DNA of 64,000 bases from Yuukianura sp. NJ FZ-2021. Taxonomy: Eukaryota. The position numbers were made by a program, and so were the translations under genes. The DNA lies in NCBI GenBank assembly GCA_046563655.1, contig CM102290.1:12028001-12092000 (forward strand), given 5' to 3'. Below are positions 2,197 to 60,400 of the stretch, piece by piece. A model generated the notes under the pieces. It was not told the origin of the DNA. It saw nothing but the letters and a program-made list of their open reading frames with translations, and made no database searches. The stretch's first letter is position 1, and every line of letters begins with the position of its first letter.

Positions 2197-5071
2197 ATGA
2201 CGGGAGTCGCTAAAGATTTAGTGGAATTCTACACCGAAATTTTACGGAAGAATGGAATAACTGATGAAATTATGGAAGTGACCGTAAAAGTGCCCAAATT
2301 GGCGGGAGAGCAATATGCAAGTCAATGTACGGAAGTTACAGTTCATTTTTTGAACAAGGATGTACCACCACTGGAACTCTTTGTTAAAAATACGGCGGGG
2401 AATGAACAATTTGCGAAGCAAATGGAAGACGTTTTGGTTTTTGAAAAAGAAGCCCAATTTTTTAGCTCACTTCTTCCTGATGTTCTTGAATTTGCCGAAA
2501 AGCATCATGGGTATGACAGAAAAAATTATTAGAAAATTTCTTTTTGGAATTATTTCCTTGTAAATTTCCGAAATATTGTTGTTTTGCTTAATACAGAAAC
2601 GATGGCTCCCTGAAAAGCCTTTTCCCAAAATGCTATCTCGCTACGCGTGACACTGCCATTTTTAAAAATTTGGTTCACAGTGGATACACGAAGCTAAGCA
2701 GATTCACGCCACATAATCTCCATACGGCAGAGTAAATCAGACTATTCATATATAAAATAAATATGGAAATGTGAAAAATATGGAAATTATTTCTTCGCTG
2801 CTTTTGTTCGTAGATTGGTGATAAAAAATTTGGCTAAATTTCATGGGGCGTTCCGCGCTTATATTCAATCAATTGGAGAAGAGACGTTCAAAGCCAAATA
2901 TTCGCATATTAGTTCGCGTAACGTTTGGTTGGAAGAAGGAGAGTTAGTCTATGGAACCTGGATTCAACAAGCTGTTGACGGAGCAATACAAATATTGACG
3001 GTAAATATAATACTGAAACAGAGTGTAATATCGAGTGCCCTAAAGTGAAGTTAGGCATTTTGTCCATTCTATTGTAAAGAATCCTCTCAACAAAAAAGGG
3101 AAGAATTTGATTGGACGAGAATGACTTCGGTATCTTGTTGACCTAATTTTTAATGTTTTTTGAAAGTTTTTCACGAAGAGATTAGATCTCTATCGTTTTC
3201 CGTTCTCGAGATACAAATTTTCAAAATTTTAATAAATTTCGAAAAACTTGAAGGGGAATGAAAGGTGACAGAGAGGTAAACTCTTCACCCCTGAATTCAC
3301 AAAAATATGGAGTATTTTTAGAAATTTTAAAAGGGTACCCTCAGATTTTGACAAAATTTCGTAAAAATCCATTGACTGTAGCCCAAAGAATTTTAATTTT
3401 TCTTAGACTAGAAGGGAAATAAGCCTGATTGTTTTGAAATCAAAGATTATCACGTCACCAAGGAAAAAACATGGCGCTTAAGCCGAGTTCACACTGATCG
3501 CTGATTAAAATAATAATTGTTTACATGAAAATTAGCGGATGGTGTGTGAACTGGGATTTACACGGCGAAAAAAAAACAGCTTTCGTCCCTTGGGTCCCTT
3601 GAAAAATGGTTTCAAAAATTTTGTTGAAATCTAGCCTTATTTTCCCTTTAGTCTAGAGAAAAATGTAGAAAATCGCCTTGACAACTCTCTACTATAGCCC
3701 ATGCTTTTTTTTTTTTTTTTTTTTCCAAAATTTGACAAAAAACTTGATGTTCGATTTTGGAGTGTTCAAAATTTAAATTTTTTTTCTATTTATTGCAAGT
3801 ATCTTGCTAAGTGATTAGGTCTCTATCGCTTTCCGTTCCTGTGATATAAATTTTCAAAATTTAATTCTAATTTTCCAAAAATTTAAAAATTTCATATCTC
3901 GGAAATGGAAAGCGATAGAGATGTAAACAAACTCTTTTCAATATTTGTAAAAATTTCTTATGCCCTTTGAAAGTTTTGCACGAAGAGATTAGCTCGCTAC
4001 CGTTTTCGCGGTATAAATTTTCAAAATTTTGTTTAACAAATTTTTTACAAATATTAGAACGCCTTACTTGGGCGTGAAAATTTTGCCTCTAAGTTGTGAT
4101 CCTGATCACACCGTAGAAGTTCCAAAGAATGTTCAAATGTTGACAAAAAAAAACAATGCAGAATATGTTGTTGTTTTCAGCGTAAGCCTACGAATGGGTC
4201 CGAAGAAGTTTTGGAATTTTTTAAGAAATATGAAACCAAAGCCATGCTGAAAATTTGTCCTTTGTTTTACCTCAACAATCTGCGGTGTTCCGTCATTCTG
4301 AGTCACGGGGATTTGGGGAATGACAATATGATGTTTACTGTCAATTCGGAAACCAACATTCCTCAAACATGTCTCTTTATTGACTTCCAGGTAAGTTATT
4401 AAAAAAGTGAGAATTATTTTAAATTTTCAGAAAAATGTGATTCTTTTGTTTTAATTTTTTAATTTGCAGACTATCAACCTTTCAACTCCGGCACAGGATT
4501 TGATTTTTTACATTTTCTTTGTAATGGACGCGGAAGTACGAAAAGAGAACTGGAAGCGTTTACTTAGCTTTTATTACGAACAAGTTCAGCAAGTAATGAG
4601 TCAGTACGGACAGAAGATTCAATACAGCCTCAGTGTAAATTTCCAATTTCTTTGTCTTTTAGTCCATGTCCTGCCTAGTTTTACACATTATCTTCTTATT
4701 TCTGCTCTTTTTGTTTTGAAAAATTTTTTAAACGGGAGTAGCCGACTAGGCTTGGTTGCTTTGGAGGCACTACTTTCTTCCAAGAACGGTGCATAACAAT
4801 ATTTTTTCATTTTTAGGACTTGACATACGACTTTTGTACCAAAAGTGTGGCTGGATTCTTCTTCGGTTTGTATCCAATATTTGGATTCGAAGCTTTGGAA
4901 AATGTTGGAGGTGTTCAAAATTCGGATGGAAATGCACTGGAAAATCTTTCCGCTACCATGAGCAACTCACTGGACAAACTCATGGACACACGCGGAACAG
5001 AATTTTCAAAAAGTATTGTTAAAATGTACAGAGAATATCAAGAGATTGAAAAATATTCACAAGATGATTGA
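2197..5071 (+). CDS. Ecdysteroid kinase-like (EcKL / DUF227) gene, copy 2, complete
   Basis: ATG 2197; exons 2197-2510, 2597-2731, 2814-3000, 4181-4390, 4470-4634, 4817-5071 are in frame with GT-AG borders. Motifs: GEQYAS, LFVK, FEKEAQFF, FPKCY, LAKFHG, HGDLGNDNMMF, DFQ. The last four exons are near-identical to copy 1. Confidence 0.87.
3150..4030. mobile_element. Composite non-autonomous repeat (palindromic 'ctctatcgcttttcgttctcgagatataaattttcaaa' family) expanding intron 3 of EcKL copy 2
   Basis: The unit occurs at ~3172-3230, ~3815-3862, inverted at ~3880-3921, and at ~3980-4030. An imperfect ~35-bp inverted repeat pairs ~3398-3432 with ~3628-3663. Segments 3155-3360 and 3726-3775 align with 51660-51935. 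Confidence 0.7.
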
Positions 5072-5941: not shown

Positions 5942-6518
5942 ATGGAAGCCAAATGTAAGATTAAATTTATTCTTAATTTCTTAAATTGGAATTATTTTTG
6001 TTATATTTTTATAATGAATTTGAAAAGGTTGCTCCCATCCTGTTGACAAGTCAGAAGCAAACGTTGTACACCGTTGTTGTCATTATATGGAACACGAGTT
6101 TTCAAAAATTGAAAGTCTAGAGAAAAAAGTTGCAATGTTGGAATGTAAAGTGAAACGACTTGAAGAACTAGAAGACAAAGTTCGTGACCTGGAAGTCAAA
6201 ATTCTGACCATGGAGGATGTTGTTGCTGATGGTAAGATTAGGATTGGTCGTTGGAGCATTGAGGCAAGCTGTTCAGGAGAGCTGGTTTTCCGCGATACGG
6301 AATCGGCGGAAGGAAAACGTTATGCGTTTCCAGTGGGCGGAAACGCAGACATGTACACGTCTGGTACTGGCGGAGAAATTGGTGCCAAGAAAATTGTGTT
6401 TCCAACTAGATGGAGTATCGGTGAAGAGTCTGTGTCGTATTTAGTGTTTCGAGACCGCGGATGTAATGGACAAGACAAAAGATATGCTATGGCTGCTAAC
6501 GTCTATCGTGATGTTTAG
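5942..6518 (+). CDS. Orphan ~167-aa protein: Cys/His-rich N-terminus, coiled coil, and two tandem copies of an 'I.RWSI......LVFRD......KRYA......D' module
   Basis: ATG 5942 exon (MEAK+t), GTAAG intron 5955-6027, exon 6028-6518 in frame with the 143-aa ORF. Heptad-like segment SLEKKVAMLECKVKRLEELEDKVRDLEVKI. Internal duplication: KIRIGRWSIEASCSGELVFRDTESAEGKRYAF versus KIVFPTRWSIGEESVSYLVFRDRGCNGQDKRYAM. Confidence 0.75.
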
Positions 6519-7284
6519 ATTGTATAATTAAACCACTTTTAATTAAAAACGACAAAATAAATGATTTTGATTCGATTTTGATCTAATTCTGGCTGAACTA
6601 TTGGCATTAAACTGGTTCCGTGATTTCGTTCGACCAAGAGATGGAGCTTCTCGGAGCCTACGTGTTACTTGGACTTGGATTAAAGGGGACTTAAGCTTGT
6701 TCTTAAAGAATCCAACGGTAGGTTGGGATTTGGGTGGTGGTTGTTGAGGTGTTAATTGAAAAGACAAAGCCTTATGCAGAATACCCTGTTGGTTGCCCTT
6801 GCCACCTTTGTTGAGGAGACAACAATAGGATGATCTCCCGTTACTTTGGATACGACCACCACTCCAAGGATTTGAGGCCATCCAAGGCTCACTTCGACTA
6901 TGTTTACAGTTTCATTTTCAACCTAACACAGACGTCACCCTACGTTCTACGTCTGGTTCAATTGATCAGTCACTGTGTGTGACGTAGTTTTGTGTAGAAA
7001 GTGACAGTGTGACATGACACAGTGAGAGTCCCTTCGGAATGAAATCGAATTTAGGCCCACCACCATCCACTGCAGAACTCACTGCAAAATCAACCCTCAA
7101 GGGCCTACGTGCACCTCAACATAGGCAACAACTTGCTACGTCAACACAGACGGAGACAGACAACTGCTGACCCCAAATTCAAATCAACAGAAGTCACTCT
7201 TTCCTTCATTTTTGAATTGCAAAGTAAGTGCAGATTGCAATATAACAAGCAAACCGTTGACACTCACTGCGCAAGATCGGAAGC

Positions 7285-9402
7285 ATGGAACAAATGGAGT
7301 CCTTCCGCTCGGACGTGGGAAATCGCTGTCACAGAAGCACAGGTATGGCAAAAAGGCAGAGATTTTGGCGTGAACTGCTTTTGGTTAGCAATGTTAATAA
7401 AAACGGTTTTTTAAAAAAATGGATAAATTGAAATTCTTTCTTTTCTTTTTTCTTTCTTTTTTAGAAAAACTGAAGCGAAGACGCTGGAATGGACGTTGTT
7501 CAAGGTCGTTCCACTGCTTACTAGTGATGTTATTACCCATTACTGTCTTAGCAGCTAATTCAGACTCCCCTACCTCATCAAATCCCACAAACCTTCAGCG
7601 TCTTTCACGTGCTCATCTAGAATTCGCACTTTCGTTTTTTCGTCACCTAACGCAGGGTTCAAATCCTGAAGAAAACGTAGTCGTCTCTCCACGCAGGTTC
7701 AAAATTTAAAATCAAAAGTTTCAAAAGAAAAACTAATTTCCGAAAATAAAGTTTAAGTAATAATGAACATAATTCTTTTAAGAAAGTCATATCTTGTAAA
7801 TTTTATGTTGAAAATCGATCTTTTTAAACGTCTAATTGATCTTTGGATTTAGTATTGCCACGATTCTGTCGCAGCTATGGCTGGGCTCACCAAGTACATC
7901 GGCCACCGCGACGCAACTAGAAGAAGCCATGTATTACAAAAATGGAGGTTTGACGGCTGCGCAGGTCCACGGTGCCTTCCGGTCGTCACTCTACTCGCTA
8001 GAAGATCCAGACTATAAGGTATGGGTTATGGCTAAATGTGAAGTAAAAGTTGTGGAACGGTTTAGCCTAACAACATATATGCGCAGATGCAATTTGTCTA
8101 ATCTGTGCAGAAGCTGTAGTTAAGTTAATATCGCCTGAATACATTATTGTTCTGTTTGCAGAATGTACTACAGAGTGCCAATGCAGTGTTTGTGCAAGCG
8201 GGTCTTGCGTTGAACCCTACGTACGAAGCTTCACTGAAGAAGTTTTACAATAGCACCATTGACGAAGTGAGTTTCGACCAGGGTGAACCCATCACTCGGG
8301 CAATTATAAATCGGTGGGTGGCCAAGGAAACCCAGGGACAGATACCCGTCCTGTTGGAGTCCCCGATACCCAGCGAAACCCGGCTCTTCATTGTCAATGC
8401 ACTAGCACTGCGCGCCCTCTGGAACAACAGTTTTGACCCATCCCTCACAGTGGCCAATGGCTACTTTCACCCTAACTTGAAATCAAGGTACTGTCAAAAA
8501 TTTGTGACTACAAACCATTTTCAAGCGTTTTGCATTTGTATTTTTCTCCCAATTCACCTTTTTTTCCTTGCAGGTTCCAGATTCCGATGATGACTGGGAA
8601 GTTCAACGTTTTGATTGGTTCGAGTCCAGAACTGAAATGTCGCCTCCTGGAACTTCCATTTCGTAGTAGACGCCTCTCCATGTTCATTCTACTCCCTGAC
8701 ATTGATCGCATCAAACGAAAAGGTGACCCAGAGTATTCCAGTAGTGAATCCAAACAGCAAATTTCAAATTTAGCACATCTTGAGAGAAATCTGAACGCGG
8801 ACACTCTAAAAAAGCTTTTTGCAACTCTGAGGGTAAATTCAAACAAATTTTACCTTGCACAGTTTTCAAAAATAACGTTCGGAAAACTTAAAAGCTATTT
8901 CAAAGTGATTCTAACAAGAAAGTTTTGTTTCAGGAAGAAAAAGCAGTGCATGTGAAGCTCCCTAAACTCAGAATCCGAAGTTCCGCCCCCATTATTGAGA
9001 CGTTGTATAAAATGGGGGTGAGTGACCTCTTTGACCCAGGTCGAGCCAATCTGTCTAAAATTTCAAATTCGAGTCAACTCCATGTCAGTGCCATCACACA
9101 CAAGTAAGACCAAGCAACCAATCACAATCACGAGTTATCACATTTTGAACTCTTTTAGTACAAAGTTTGATAAAAATATGTATTTAATGAAATATTTAAT
9201 TAAATGCAGGACTGTGATTGAGTTGCATGAAGAAGGAGCTCAGGCTGCAGCGATTACAGCGACAGAAGTGCAGCGAACGTACGACGTTGTCGGAAACTAC
9301 TTCGAGGTCAACCGTCCCTTCATTTTCTTCATCTGGGATTACCAGAGTGGAGCTCTGCTTTTCATTGGGCGAGTAGCATTCCCAGAACCCCTTAGAAATT
9401 GA
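7285..9402 (+). CDS. Serpin (serine protease inhibitor superfamily), probably secreted
   Basis: Exons 7285-7342, 7465-7696, 7853-8018, 8162-8487, 8574-8832, 8934-9103, 9210-9402. Motifs: ENVVVSP.SI, INRWVAKETQGQI, IVNAL...ALW...FDP, IPMM, LELPF, LSMFILLP, V.LPK, hinge EEGAQAAAIT, FEVNRPFIFFI, LFIGRV..P. Hydrophobic signal-like LLVMLLPITVLAA. AATAAA at 9601. The first exon is less certain. Confidence 0.92.
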
Positions 9403-28869: not shown

Positions 28870-28941
28870 TTCCCATGCGGGGAATCGAACCCCGGCCATT
28901 CACGTGAGAGGCGAATATCCTAACCACTAGACCACATGGGA
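28870..28941 (-). tRNA. tRNA-Glu (anticodon CTC)
   Basis: Minus strand TCCCATGTGGTCTAGTGGTTAGGATATTCGCCTCTCACGTGAATGGCCGGGGTTCGATTCCCCGCATGGGAA (72 nt). 7-bp acceptor stem TCCCATG/CATGGGA, A box, anticodon arm TTCGC-CT CTC AC-GTGAA, T arm CGGGG-TTCGATT-CCCCG. Pol III terminator TTTTT at 28865-28861. Confidence 0.97.
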
Positions 28942-53345: not shown

Positions 53346-55146
53346 TGGATGCGCAGACGTGTTGGGAATGCTATGAGATACTAGGTGGCACAATTCGAGG
53401 TTCTGGATGATGTTTTTTTTAACGCAAATCCTGAATTTAGTGTAGCTACGTAAGTAATCAAGACGAAATTTTAGGTATTCCTCAGCGTTTTTTTTTATGC
53501 TGAAAACCAAACAAAAGACGCATTGACTATTAAAAAACAAAATCCCAATTAAGTACATAATAAAAAAAATGAAGAGAAGCAAGGGGATGCAAAATTTGGA
53601 AATTGACAAAACGGTTTGACTTTTCGTGAAAAATGGAATCGTCGCAACTTTTTTTCCTTAGTTAAGGAGTTTTCCATGCCTTCGCTATGAAATCTTTTTC
53701 ATGGACTTTGACTTTGTAATGAGACGCTTCAGAATTTCCCTTGAGTCATCATCTTTTTGGTTGATGAAGGGAAAGTGGCCAAACGCTTTCTCCAATTGGT
53801 CAATTAAGTTCAGCGCAGACGCAGAGACGCAACTCTGTCTCGTTTCAAACACAAATGCAAATCTAAAGAGACGCAAAAACTTTAATTATTATGATTTTTT
53901 TGAAAACCGCTACAACTTGAGCCGACATAAGGTCGGTGCTACTATTTTGAAAATTTGCTTTAGAACGTCATGTTTTATTTTAGGTTTTAAAGATTGTCGA
54001 AAAAGCTTGAAAATTTTTTAAAAATTTAAAGTTTGAGGAGAAAGATTTTGTAATTGGAGAGAGTTGTGCGTTGTGGAACTGGTGACGATGAGTCCTTTTG
54101 TCCTTAGTAACGTTAAAGGGGAGACAACATAAGCGTAGGAGAGTGGTTTGTTGTTGACCAGGGGAGCCTAGCAGGGTTGGGTTTTTTCCTGCTACGGTCC
54201 TCCTTGGCTTTTCACTCCGAATTCGGGTATTTTCGGAGGGTTCGGATGTGTTGAACAGTAGAGGAGCATAGTACAAGGGCTAAGGGACGGGCGTTTGAGT
54301 CAAACGCTTTCCCCTATGTCTTTCCAACAAACAACTCTTCAATTTACACAACACAGTGGTCTAAATCAACCTAAAAATGACACAAAAATATTTCTTTCCA
54401 ACCTACAATTCGTTAGCGAAAGGAGAAAGTGGAAGTGAAAATACTTTTTTAAAGTAAGCAACCAATAGTACTAACCTATACACAACCGCGTTCAGACTTC
54501 AGTTTAGTTATTGCTATTTCAGTAACTTTACTATATACTAGTTTGAAAATCTGTTTGAAATTAAAAGTACAGTGTCAAAAAATATTTCATGAAAAAAATA
54601 GGAAACAAAATAACAACGGTTTTTACCATAAAGAGAAAGTACGAAAAGAAAACATGTTCGACGTAGTGCTAAACGCAACTTAATCCAATTCAAGACGGAA
54701 TTCAAAAGTACAGCTTCATTTTAGCTGTACTTTTTGGGCAACTCTTTTGTGTCTTGTGGACCACTGTGATTCGGAGAGCTGGATTCGGGAAATGTTGTGA
54801 ATTGCGCGAAGCCTTGCGCAGAAGCCGCTATATGAACATTCGGATTTAGATGAGGGTAAGGGAAGAACATGGGCGAAGGGAACGGATCTCACTCAACTTT
54901 CCCTTGGACTTATCTTCAACTGTTTACTTTTTTATTTTTCTAGTCACATTATGTAATTAGTAACTAATTGACACTCGCCTTCCTGCAAGGGACTCCAAGG
55001 GCCCACCACTCAAAACCAACCAAGGCTCTCTATTCATTCCGTAAGTACCCCTCTTGTATATGTGTGGAACAAACAGAGAGTAGAGTGTCTGAGTGTTTGT
55101 GCTAAGGGAAAGTATTCCAGCGTTCACTAAAGTCACTTTCGTCACC

Positions 55147-57451
55147 ATGGAGACTGTTGAGTTGAGTGACGAAGCTTTAGCGGCAGAGTCTGTCATCACG
55201 GTATACACGACGTCGGGTCACAACAATCGTTTCATAGTGACCACAACCAGCGGCGGAGTACTTGAATCCATGGCTCAGCGGAATGCCAACAGTGTAGTGC
55301 TTGAGGACTGTGAAGAAGGTGACATTGAAGAAGAAGTAGTCGACGGATCGCTGCTCATCACGACAGATGACGTAAAATACGATGATCACGTGATTCAGGC
55401 GGAAGATGACGGATCAGGCGGGCATCTTCAGGCAGATGACGACGAAGAGCCCCACCATCACCACCACCATCACCATCATCACCACCTTGATCACCATCAA
55501 GACCAAGCCCCTGACACCACAGTGCTCGAGTCCCACCACCAGTTGACTTTGGCCCATGCCCCTTCCCACCATATGATTCCCATTGCAATTCAACAACATC
55601 ATCACCACACAGGAGCCGGAGGGGAGATTTTTTCGCCTGGTCTAGTGCTGACGAGTGCTGGCGGAAGACCGTCGCGAGTCGTAGTGGTCACTTCGCATGG
55701 AGCCCTTACGACAGCAGCCCATCTAAACAGTCTGAATACCCTGGGGCTCCATCATCGTTTTCAGGTGAAGCAAGAAGAGCTCCAGACAGCAGCCGAAGAC
55801 TTGTCACTGAGTACGTGTACGTCGGTTGGGCCGGATCAGGCGTCGACTCAGGCCCCCTCCAACATTGCCCACATTTCTAACATCAGTCTCCTCACCCACC
55901 AGCACGGAAGTACACACCAGGCCATACGCTTTCACTCCTCGCACTCCCAGTCCATCTTAGCTCACAGTCAGGACAGTCTGCACTCACATTCCCTCGGTGA
56001 CGACGATGAGGACGAGTCGTCACAGTGCAAGTCCAGCAGCGATGGACGGGATGGAACACTGACAGTGATTGTGCCACCACAGCTGACTGACCAAGACTCA
56101 CACTCTCCGTCAGGACTTGACTCCAACGAAGCCTCACTCCTGTCTCCCAAGTTGTCACCTTCGAGCGGCATTACTGTAAGTGTGAGCAGTATGATTGACG
56201 CATCCGAGTACCACCGTGGCCTCCAAAGTGAGCATGGAGGCTACCAGGCCCTAAGTTCCGTCAACGGAAGGCTCTCCCCGGCCGGTTTCAGTCCGGGTAC
56301 CGGTAATTCCCAATATGCTACCTTGACTCCACTCCAACCTCTACCACCAATTTCTACCATGTCAGACAAGTTTGCCTACGGCCATGCTGGAAATGTGGCC
56401 GGCTCTTTCACGGTTATGCACAACAATGGACTGGCCAACTTGGGCCTCGGCGTCAGTTCACCCTATTCATCATACGAAAAGTTACCATCCATGGGCATTT
56501 CACCTCAACACTACTCTTCTCCGACGAATGGACTTGGGGTAGGACTGGGTCACCAACACTCCCCGTCAATGTCACCGCACTATGGCCAAAACGGACTCGG
56601 CTCGTCACCAAAAGCCCTTTCACCAAACGGCTACGACTCTTACGGAAGTAATGGCAACGGAGCCCGGGACTTGAGGGCCTCTCTACACAATTCAGGCGTG
56701 TCACACAGTCAGAGTCCGTCGCTGAGCCCACCAGGTACTATCCACCACCACAACACGTCTCCACCGCACATGACCTTCAACGTCGTCCAGTCCGGTATGA
56801 ACCAAGTTCAGGTCAACGGACTGACCTCTCTCAGCCCCAACTCAACACCACACAACTCTCCACCATTGGCCGGAGCCACCGCCGTGGTCGTGACCCACCG
56901 TGACGCCTCGTCTCCACAAACTTCCAGTCCTCTTTCAATTACAATGTCCATGTCGTCTCCACTGACGGGCGGGAGTCTGACGACCCAGGCCCTGATCTCT
57001 GCTCATTCACACCAACAGCAACAACATGCTCACTCCCACCCCCACATCAGTCATACCCACCATCAGCAGCAACAAGGCTTGAGCCACGCTCTTTCTTCCC
57101 ACGGTGGGACCTCCAAGACAAATCAAAGTAGTGGTGGCGGGGGGAACTTGACAGCGACTCCTGCAGGTTCAGGGAATAGTGGGGCTTCGTCCGTGTCAGG
57201 GTCAGGGGAACTGGAGGAAATCAATACAAAGGAACTGGCTGCTCGGATCAGTGCAGAGTTGAAGCGATACAGCATCCCACAAGCAATATTTGCCCAGAGG
57301 GTGCTATGTAGGTCACAAGGCACGCTCTCTGACCTCCTCCGCAATCCAAAACCTTGGTCAAAACTCAAGTCCGGCAGAGAGACGTTTCGTCGGATGTGGA
57401 AGTGGCTCCAGGAACCAGAGTTTCAACGCATGTCTGCCCTCCGCATGGCAG
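55147..57451 (+). CDS. onecut: ONECUT-class transcription factor, first coding exon with the CUT domain; homeodomain exon not in the window
   Basis: Kozak-like caccATGg at 55147 in a 792-codon ORF. Poly-His tract, the ONECUT-specific YATLTPLQPLPPISTMSDKF box, and CUT domain EEINTKELAARISAELKRYSIPQAIFAQRVLCRSQGTLSDLLRNPKPWSKLKSGRETFRRMWKWLQEPEFQRMSALRMA. Donor G|GTGAG at 57452, at the intron position conserved in ONECUT genes. Confidence 0.96.
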
Positions 57452-60400
57452 GTGAGCTAAAAAGTAAATGACACTTTTTCACTCCTTTGTTAATTAGTTG
57501 CTTCAATTTCTTCAATTACTTTGAGTATAGTCTTTTACGACCAAGATTCAAGTGAAAGTCAACGGAGAAAGTCATAGAATCTACAAAATCTGTGACTTTT
57601 GACCCCGAAATCTCTTTTCTCCGTTGACTTTCACTTTTGCAGCGTTAGATCTTCTCCAACTTGCTATTTTCATGACCACGCTTAATCTGCCGGATTTGAA
57701 CACGAGTCAGGTTGGCGTGACACCCTGTGTCCATCCCATGTATGAAATTTTTCATAAATTTCTAAATACCAAAAGTGAAAGTTTCTTCATAAATGCAGGA
57801 ATATTGAATTTTTTAGTTGTTAAAAATTTCAAACTTTTTTGTTTTTAAAAATTCAAATTCTTAGCTATTTTTGGTCAACGGATGTACAAAAATTACGTTT
57901 AAAAACTTTCCTCAATTTGCCGTTGTTTCAAATTTCGGTGTGTATTTGATTTGGCATGGACTCTACAACTGCACTTTTCAATTTCAAAATTTTGGAAAGT
58001 CTTTTTTTTTCTTGTAAAGCTTATCGGTTGTTAAATGATAGGTTTTTAGTTGGAGTTTGGTTGTATGTCAAAGCAACAAGGTTGCACAAGTCGTAACTCC
58101 TTCTTACTGGTTCCGAGGTTAATTTGATTTGTTTGATTGGTGACATTGGACCATGTCAAAGGTCCACAAAGTCTCAAGAGGTCACAAGTTCAGTTCCCAA
58201 GCGAATGAGTGGGAAGGAACATAATTGGTTTGGACTCAATTTCCAAACCTGACTTGCATTTTCATCGTTTCCTGCCCATTACTAACTTAACTTGGACTGT
58301 AAAGGTTAGGTTATGGAGAACTCCATTTCCATGTCACATGGCAGGGAAAGTGGGCATGGACGGTTCTCAGGAAGGAATTGTGAGTAGAAGCTACGGAGAG
58401 CTTTTCATGCTAATTCTGTCCACCACGGTGAAAGCACCGGCTAATGCACTTTGGTCTTCCTTATTCTTCTGCCGAGGTTCAGGTTAGCCCAAGTGCTATG
58501 AGTGTCTATAACGTTAGGTTTAGGCTAACGCTAAACTAAAGTTTTGATGTTGGATGTTCCCATTCATATTGAAAGTGATTTTGGTTATGCTTGCATGTTT
58601 TGCTTCAATAGGTTTCCAATTGGAGGCGTACTTTGTTGTTTCGGTTCGAACCATCATGAAATATTGGGAAACAAAAGAAAAGCTATTGTCCATCATTTCT
58701 CATCTAAGGACAACCAATCACAATCCAGCATTCGGGTTAGGTTAGTTGCCGATGTCCAACACAAGACAAAGTGATTTGGGTTTCGGTTGAGTCACTGGGA
58801 AAGTGCAGAGTTAAATCAGGGGAAATGAGATATTTTGGCAACTTGTGCTCTGTTTTGCACGAAATGCGTCTCTGCTTCCGGAAATGGTGGAGATACTGTC
58901 GGCCAGTAGAGCACTGTCGATCGCTTAAGCGTCTAAGTTCTTCTTAGTTTAAGCGTCTAGAGCTTAAAAAACTAAAGAGGGAGAGATATTAGTTGGATGG
59001 GAACAAACAGGCTGAAATGAGGCTTGGATCCGAGACTTTCTCTCTACTCTAAGCCTAACTTTCTTTTTGGCCTTCTGTCGTTATATTTCATGTTTTTTTT
59101 CTTCGGAGGGTGGGAAACTGGCCGCGAGAAGTTGGAACTTTTAGTTGTACTTTTTTTATTTTTTGGTTAAAACCTCGAGGTTCCAGGTACGACGGAGTGA
59201 AAGTTCCTTCTTTTGTTATTTGGATCCAGTGGGGGGAAGGACCTAACGTAAGCAAGGGAAAAGTGAGCTGCTAAGCGTCTAGCGCTGGATGTAGCGTTGC
59301 TGGTTAGGCTAGTCGATTCTGGCGAAAGGGCTAGGAGGTGCCCTTTCCTCTTGGAACTGGTGGTGTGAGGAGATATAATTTATTCTAGTCGGTCTAAACC
59401 TGAACAGACAACTTAGAATTGTATTAGAAGCACACCAAATTCAAAATGCTAAATCCAAAAGGTGACGGTTTAGGCTAAGGTTCTTCTGGAAGAGAAAGTA
59501 AATCATGTCTCCAGTCGTTCCTTCAAGGGAAGATGCAATTCGGCTAAAGCGGGACATGAACGCGGGAAGGCTCAAAAAGCCGCAAGTGTGGAGACTTTGG
59601 TGCCTTAAGGCCTCTGTGGTCACTGCGGTTCAGGAGCTCCAAGTCCCCCTATAGTCGTAGTCACTCCAGGACGGAACCTAACCACCTAACGTAGCTGTGA
59701 CTCATCAAATATGAACTTCCCTTTGTCTGTTTTGGTTTTCTGGAAGGAGGGCTGTGTGGACAGGTCGACTGGCAGGGGGTGACACTGTGACAAGGACGGA
59801 GCGACATGTCCATATTCTTTGACTCAACAACGAAACAACATGCGGCAATAACTTGAAGTGACTCACATAAACCACTGAAACTGTTAACTTCAATGTAAAA
59901 TCAAATGAAACTAGTTCAAGTGAAAGTAGCTGCAAGGATATGATGGCGTTTTGGCATTTGAAAGTTCGAGTTTTTGTACTTTTTTTCGAAATAGTCGATT
60001 TCATTTTAAAGATTTGTTTCGAATTTTAAGATTCGGGCGAATTTCTTCTGCGACGTTTGATATGGCTACTTTTTTTAGTATTTGAAAATTCCCGCGGAAA
60101 AAATCGAGAAATGGCCACCAAGCGGTTGGTGGGGCTTTAAAGGTGGAGCAGAGGATTAATTGGAGGTGGTGGGTCAGAGGTCAGAGATATTTGTGCAGAA
60201 TTGGCCATTAGATGAAACCATCGTATTAATAATTGGATACGAGTTGGGTTATAGGGCTGGAGTGGCTAATGATTTGGCTCATTAGACTTTTGTTCTTCTG
60301 TTAATGTTGTGTCCCTATTACATTCTGATTGGAATATTAGGATCCAACAGGAAGTCAGAGAGGGAACTTTAGCTGCCAAAATGGACTCTGGCTACCCCCA

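Follow-up and report, generated by a model that had tools for sequence, protein, structure and literature searches.

Collectins present C-terminal binding heads on a trimeric alpha-helical neck, and the same arrangement of neck and terminal heads, shared with other trimeric coiled-coil lectins, is predicted for the trimer of a protein encoded at positions 5942-6518 (+) of the window, the 64,000-nucleotide stretch of DNA analysed here. The likeness is one of architecture, but the head of the window protein is not a C-type lectin domain, a collagen region is absent, and the window copy lacks a signal peptide. The stalk recalls the designed peptide Coil-VaLd (1coi), which likewise has Val at a and Leu at d and was the second-ranked match (E 0.15) in a PDB sequence search where the stalk matched designed trimers only weakly (E 0.11-0.15). 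Also among the closest systems are the bulb-type (GNA-like) beta-prism II lectins, including the Marasmius oreades mannose lectin (4tkc), the SRK ectodomain (5gyy) and the lectin part of UmbA4 (9oee). The mannose-binding motif of beta-prism II lectins is QxDxNxVxY, which is absent both from P0001 (the window protein translated from position 6030, to which the module residue numbers below refer) and from the family consensus; B_lectin gave no match in P0001 at E<=10 and none in 34 three-module family members at E<=1. Pfam likewise finds no Lectin_C, Collagen or H_lectin domain in P0001, and the H-type lectin domain occurs in the viral contig L005 as a separate domain beside the module.

Conceptually nearest to the proposed head among published structures are three-chain beta-prisms. 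In the N-domain of the zamilon virophage protein Zav_19 and in lactococcal phage RBP necks, four strands per chain form a three-chain prism on a three-fold axis beside a three-helix bundle, and possible sugar density on the prism faces has been noted (bioRxiv 10.1101/2023.01.23.525297). The strands of these prisms intertwine between chains, which sets them apart from the head proposed here. No sequence or fold match to trimeric beta-prism fibre domains was obtained, a monomer-based fold search being unable to test for a three-chain prism. By sequence, the head of the window protein matches no lectin family. To the reading in which a trimeric stalk carries two units of three modules each, together acting as a multivalent and probably glycan-binding head, we give about an even chance.

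Direct reading of the sequence gives a two-exon gene encoding a 167-aa protein. The stalk (6096..6224, +) spans about 5.5 heptads, agreeing with the roughly five of the original prediction, and is predicted to be a parallel three-stranded coiled coil with Val/Ile at a and Leu at d. Its hydrophobic residues are spaced 3-4, with I/V/V at a and L/L/L at d over the first 2.5 heptads, followed by one discontinuity and then L,V,L,I,M,V; AF2 models residues 7-60 as a helix at pLDDT 86-96. Behind the stalk, module 1 (6234..6380, +; residues 69-117) runs from IRIGRWSI through LVFRD to KRYAF and the following loop (module HMM E 6e-12), with AF2 strands at E69-72, E75-79, E84-89 and E97-101. Module 2 (6387..6515, +; residues 120-162), reading RWSIGEE...LVFRD...KRYAM...YRDV, forms the C-terminal end of the protein (module HMM E 3e-14). 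The two halves of the head align with a BLOSUM62 local score of 50, a value reached by none of 5000 shuffles (mean 21.0, sd 4.3, max 44). The duplicated module of about 45 aa that had been claimed, with its second copy terminal, therefore stands, but its finer description needs correction: in each copy 7 residues, instead of the claimed six, lie between RWSI and LVFRD, and I-x-x-RWSI is inexact, since the residues ahead of RWSI differ between copy 1 (IRIGRWSI) and copy 2 (IVFPTRWSI). The IRIGRWSI stretch is common to the window protein and the virus-like protein P0043.

Across the family, the module of ~45 aa follows the pattern W-x-I-x-E-E ... L-V-F-R-D ... G-D/K-x-R-Y-A-F and ends in Y-x-D-[LMV]. 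Columns invariant over 12 sequences include W75, D89, R97, Y98, A99, F100, I130 and E133, together with L138, V139, R141, D149, R151, Y152, A153 and D161. The polar residues of E-E, R-D and D-x-R-Y show little or no variation among family modules, a conservation that suggests a repeated site; module 1 of the window protein is without the E-E pair (EASCSGE).

The module family appears to be described by no library. Against P0001, Pfam returned only sub-threshold coiled-coil noise, and NCBIfam and PHROGs gave no match; a PDB profile search with the family alignment A2 produced 0 matches at E<=10, the ESM Atlas held no usable match to P0001 or to the three-module protein P0018, and full-text literature searched with the module motif stretches yielded nothing on the module. 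The original prediction could assign the protein to no named family and had itself named a known Pfam family as contrary evidence; neither Pfam nor NCBIfam, PHROGs or PDB sequences supplied one. Weak matches to DUF6882 in 5 of 34 members (best E 0.0027) lie below the cut-off and were discarded as noise.

The family is rare, and most of its members are metagenome proteins. A phmmer search of 1.84 billion representatives returned 13 proteins at E<=1e-3, of which 11 were accepted (E 1e-35 to 3e-5). The two rejected, P0007 and P0010, are huge bacterial proteins with architectures of Peptidase_S8 plus a T9SS tail and BspA-LRR plus GH85_C repeats, in which weak repeat matches at 25-34% local identity had been summed and the motif is absent. 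The family profile search yielded 35 proteins of near length and 8 longer ones. Only three members carry organism names, namely those of Arcella intermedia (P0025) and Pelomyxa sp. (P0028), both Amoebozoa, and of the chrysophyte Dinobryon divergens (P0064), the remaining matches being JGI, ENA, Logan or NCBI metagenome-type entries; no animal-proteome name occurs among the matches from protein collections of 1.8-5.8 billion. A viral scan with the three-module alignment confirmed 3 of 66 pattern stretches, located on three IMG/VR contigs of which two belong to giant-virus bins; together with the named protist members, these bear out the originally suggested occurrence of such motifs in microbial eukaryotes and large DNA viruses. 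When the two-module alignment A1 was used for the viral scan instead, none of 6 pattern stretches held up, and P0063 yielded none; 0 of 37 were confirmed in 185,579 prokaryote genomes, and tblastn against INPHARED phage records found none.

The three-module proteins of protists and metagenomes share with the window protein the same ~45-aa module, including W-x-I-x-E-E, L-V-F-R-D, G-D-x-R-Y-A-F and a terminal Y-x-D-[LM], at 33-44% identity to the window head. They differ in carrying three modules per chain and no coiled coil, and in the tree they stand apart from the two-module subfamily by a long branch. Often they stand alone at ~141 aa or lie C-terminal to Peptidase_S8, Peptidase_C1 or Tectonin. 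A module HMM built in the course of this work was run over 91 proteins (P0007 and P0010 left out), and 90 of them, many being near-identical cluster members, were found to carry the module: three copies in 67, two in 16, one in 6 and six in 1. In 76 of these 90, no more than 3 residues separate the module from the C-terminus. Among the 16 two-module proteins, seven constitute a coiled-coil subfamily, comprising the window protein, P0002 (L001), P0003 (L002), P0004-6 and P0008, and the other nine are mostly short and from short contigs. Module triplets are C-terminal in the Peptidase_S8 proteins P0035, P0037, P0064, P0065 and P0068 and in the Peptidase_C1 protein P0012, and lie downstream of Tectonin in P0067 and P0069. 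As appendages of secreted proteases and tectonin, such triplets occupy the usual position of binding modules, which by analogy makes a binding role likely. A different order is seen in the cluster of P0086 (610 aa) and P0070, in which a three-module set lies N-terminally, ahead of ~270 residues without a Pfam match; one member has six modules.

All six one-module proteins are long viral or virus-like proteins. The L003 ORF, of 963 aa, has fibrous repeats and one module at the end; the L004 ORF (3798-5111, +) has a membrane segment at its N-terminus together with an Xlink (hyaluronan-binding link) domain, a collagen triple helix and one terminal module; and in the L005 ORF the module, at residues 345-392, stands just ahead of the separate H_lectin domain (411-478), with a Peptidase_S74 fibre-chaperone gene upstream. 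The domain combination of L004 is unusual for a virus. These contigs hold dense intron-less ORFs, with Hsp70, protein kinase and GST as neighbours in L003 and UCH and a minor-capsid-P2-like protein in L004, and such contexts fit large DNA viruses, as judged from gene content. The giant-virus fibre-like proteins (L003 and L005 from giant-virus bins, L004, and the virus-like P0043, P0063 and P0044) share the same module at module HMM E 1e-14 to 1e-19 and would be trimeric by other parts, namely a collagen helix, an H-type lectin or a fibre-chaperone neighbour. They differ from the window protein in having one module per chain, in being long and fibrous or membrane-anchored, and in their viral genomic context. 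The simplest rule covering these architectures would be that three modules make one unit, supplied either by one chain or by three chains held together through a collagen helix or coiled coil.

In sequence, the window is animal DNA. Directly downstream of the stalk-protein gene is a serpin gene of several exons (7401-8955, +; Pfam Serpin E 1.6e-24 and 2.3e-7), an Arm-repeat ORF is recognised by Pfam at 46.1-46.7 kb, and a 792-codon open frame (55093-57471, +) with a CUT domain at its end (E 1.7e-33) probably represents one large exon of a homeobox gene of the ONECUT/CUX type. Rfam, at gathering threshold, recognises a single tRNA gene (28870-28941, -) and nothing else in the window. Integration of the stalk-protein gene in host DNA is indicated by the serpin gene 0.9-2.4 kb downstream, by the CUT and Arm genes in the same window and by the intron, and the gene resembles host genes in GC (0.44) and GC3 (0.36). 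No second copy of the gene was found within the window. Two direct repeats precede the gene, one of ~550 nt (429-981 / 4164-4717; 91-93% identity, ~3736 nt apart) and one of 166 nt (1-166 / 2840-3005; 95% identity, 2839 nt apart), and the same short ORF occurs at 860 and 4596; this looks like local duplication or a dispersed element. Between 30000 and 46000, GC skew is strongly positive throughout, at 0.11-0.32 per 2 kb and highest at 40-42 kb, and AT skew is negative.

How the gene came to be in an animal genome bears on its interpretation. In a tree built on the C-terminal 100 residues, the seven two-module proteins with a coiled coil fall on one side of a branch with support of 100/99 and a stem of 1.12, and within this subfamily the window and L001 proteins group with that of L002 (97/87). 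A module-level tree of 48 columns leaves 27 of 50 inner branches open, names no donor and does not separate viral from protist sequences as nearest. Copies of the gene are present in DNA contigs of two organisms from two studies, and alongside them the samples contain several diverged versions, perhaps paralogues or haplotypes, one with a replaced inter-module linker seen in both organisms. To call the protein an orphan, as originally proposed, is therefore too strong, given the distinct coiled-coil two-module subfamily and the diverged extra copies in the same DNA samples. Horizontal acquisition stays a hypothesis: the patchy distribution and the lack of any match from a named animal proteome favour it, and the donor-less module tree and host-like GC and GC3 do not. 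A horizontal origin is nonetheless plausible, given how patchy the distribution is.

The alternative that survives best, itself doubtful but deserving serious consideration, is an old eukaryotic family that has been kept in few lineages or is unannotated in animals, with the two-module coiled-coil subfamily as its animal or opisthokont branch. Such a history would agree with the well-supported subfamily branch and its length of 1.12 from all three-module proteins, with the predicted spliceosomal intron and host-like composition, and with the diverged extra copies in the DNA of two organisms. The L002 homologue, moreover, has an intron past its signal peptide and a fragment of RT, like animal genomes, and the hosts of L001, L002, P0004-6 and P0008 could be animals. 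However, protein collections of 1.8-5.8 billion sequences gave no match named from an animal proteome, the named members are all Amoebozoa or chrysophyte apart from giant-virus contigs, and broad vertical inheritance would need very many losses. Transfer into the animal lineage remains the preferred hypothesis for the origin.

The gene model itself is also subject to a rival reading. As read from the sequence, exon 1 (5942..5954, +) holds the ATG-led codons of MEAK and one base of a Cys codon divided by the intron (T|GT), and its ATG at 5942 is the first past an AT-rich upstream region and has a good context (acaATGG). The following intron (5955..6027, +; 73 nt, phase 1, GT/AG) reads GTAAGA...AAAAG, and both the donor GTAAGA at 5955 and the acceptor AG at 6026-6027 match the splice consensus; its GC content is 13.7% versus 43.8% for exon 2, and one contig of the DNA runs carries 1-nt insertions within it at 6010 and 6016. 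Exon 2 (6028..6518, +), part of an open frame at 6024-6518, closes with a TAG stop at 6516-6518, and a candidate polyadenylation signal, AATAAA (6556..6561, +), follows 38 nt past the stop by consensus. The ATG, GT/AG intron and stop so read sustain the two-exon gene of the original prediction, with splicing predicted. Since the split codon T|GT encodes Cys, the protein would begin MEAKCCSH...HRCCH...H, a Cys/His-rich N-terminus (CCSH...HRCCH...H; 5954..6095, +) that bears out the claimed CC.H...H.CCH pattern. Cys also occurs just ahead of the coiled coil in relatives, as CSCC in L002, CGC in P0004 and a single Cys in L001.

A different transcript would change this picture, and we consider it rather unlikely: an upstream exon might add a signal peptide and make the protein secreted, or translation might start, with no intron involved, at the ATG of 6087-6089, giving 143 aa without the Cys/His region. 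Signal peptides occur in the relatives P0004-6, P0008, P0016, P0028, L001 and L002, and those of the subfamily (P0004-6, P0008, L001 and L002) lend weight to the first possibility; the L001 relative begins with MDKYNIILLGFTTLLTFCNFSMA, and in that of L002, which begins with MSTLVIFGVLVATSVFTTACHG, a ~54-nt intron comes next. It is, besides, unusual for a first exon to have only 13 coding nt. Against this, the 5.9 kb upstream of the gene on the + strand held only T-rich low-complexity ORFs and no credible signal-peptide exon, the 5942 start has its good context and consensus donor and acceptor sites, and many three-module family members are likewise without a signal peptide. The two-exon model, which we retain, leaves the window copy without a signal peptide, so that it need not act outside the cell.

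Structure prediction, which had been proposed for the monomer and trimer together with a Foldseek search, gave a mixed outcome. For the window protein, modelled by AF2 as a monomer from 7 sequences, the head was poor (pLDDT 37-68), whereas the three-module P0018, with 34 sequences, reached pLDDT 93.6 and pTM 0.88 and showed thirteen strands, equal to 3 x 4 plus a closing C-terminal strand. Foldseek found no match at E<=1e-3 in the PDB (best TM about 0.2-0.28) or in BFVD. The three-copy model of P0001 did pass, scoring 0.67 against 0.00 for the best of 3 controls, with contact agreement of at least 79% and partner pLDDT of at least 72 across runs. The mark used was reached by 21 of 30 proteins solved as same-chain pairs and by 0 of 23 single chains (17 of 29 and 0 of 30 in eukaryotes), a calibration on two copies and not three; the pass may also reflect solved coiled coils already known to the predictor. 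In the model, in-register contacts at residues 20-65 continue into both modules, and low-error cross-chain pairs of L85 with W75 and F87 place module 1 against module 1 of the next chain. The window protein is thus most likely, in these models, a parallel homotrimer held by its Val/Ile(a)-Leu(d) coiled coil. The idea of a stalk with a beta-rich head resembling trimeric fibre or head proteins gains from this homotrimer model and from the occurrence of the same module at the end of giant-virus fibre-like proteins.

The same observations could be accommodated if the module were only a trimerisation or folding nucleus, like foldon or collagen NC domains, and the animal protein a structural fibre or scaffold without a specific ligand. 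This appears unlikely to us, although it accounts well for the viral proteins, where the terminal module closes a long fibrous protein in both ORFs in which it is terminal, once straight after a collagen helix. Collagen helices require a trimerisation nucleus and would need one such as this, and both the position of the module at the end of 76 of 90 family proteins and the cross-chain module contacts of the trimer model would suit such a cap. On the other hand, 67 of the 90 proteins hold three modules in one chain and need no trimerisation, many stand alone at ~141 aa or sit C-terminal on secreted proteases or a tectonin lectin, where binding modules are usually found, the window protein already possesses a coiled coil for trimerisation, and the near-invariant E-E, R-D and D-x-R-Y suggest a repeated site. 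These points favour a head with a binding role.

Selection on the head adds to this. In comparison with L001 and L002, pN is 0.23-0.30 and pS 0.83-0.87, the latter saturated, and 12 of the 17 best-supported exon-2 differences listed are synonymous, including 8 of 9 within the head, with 106 more differences across the stretch. The original prediction had regarded a lack of purifying selection as grounds for questioning the gene; judged from these values, the head is under purifying selection. Between stalk and head, both the L001 and the L002 homologue are broken, L002 by an in-frame TAA at 2158-2160 and L001 by a +1 frameshift at about 3410-3428, and in both an ATG after the interruption was taken as the start by the gene caller. 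Read by eye, neither the TAA of L002 nor the frameshift of L001 has an intron that would keep the frame, and the interruptions could be pseudogenes, assembly errors or something regular. That the window ORF belongs to a small gene family as a silent or decaying member without present function is very improbable, for although these interrupted homologues and the several diverged copies in the DNA samples recall families with pseudogene members, the window copy has an unbroken reading frame between ATG and stop as well as consensus splice sites, its head combines pN of 0.23-0.30 with saturated pS, and its listed exon-2 variants are predominantly synonymous.

In the preferred reading of a trimeric stalk with a multivalent head, three chains would assemble as a parallel homotrimer through the Val/Ile(a)-Leu(d) coiled coil, and the Cys/His cluster atop the stalk may staple them together. 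Each chain would end in two ~45-aa modules predicted to be four-stranded and beta-rich, and three modules are predicted to form one closed pseudo-threefold unit. Such units would draw three modules from a single chain in protists and one from each of three chains in giant-virus fibres, and the two-module subfamily would supply 2 x 3, giving two stacked three-fold units on the stalk. Much as collectins or viral fibre heads do, this head would bind a surface ligand, probably a glycan, multivalently. The gene itself would probably be an ancient acquisition by the animal lineage, with a protist or a giant virus as donor. More broadly, and only tentatively, the module may represent a new three-fold fold of four-stranded sheets, used with one to three modules per chain in giant-virus fibres and secreted proteins of protists, which was captured by an animal lineage from one of these two sources, placed on a trimeric coiled coil and expanded into a multivalent recognition family under purifying selection.

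If true, one assembly principle would be met in three ways, with the modules threefold in a single chain, single on a collagen trimer or paired on a coiled-coil trimer, and the module rule would constitute a direct prediction on quaternary structure. The stalk-protein gene would then be a candidate animal gene common to giant viruses and amoebae, and possibly the representative of a new class of recognition or adhesion proteins.
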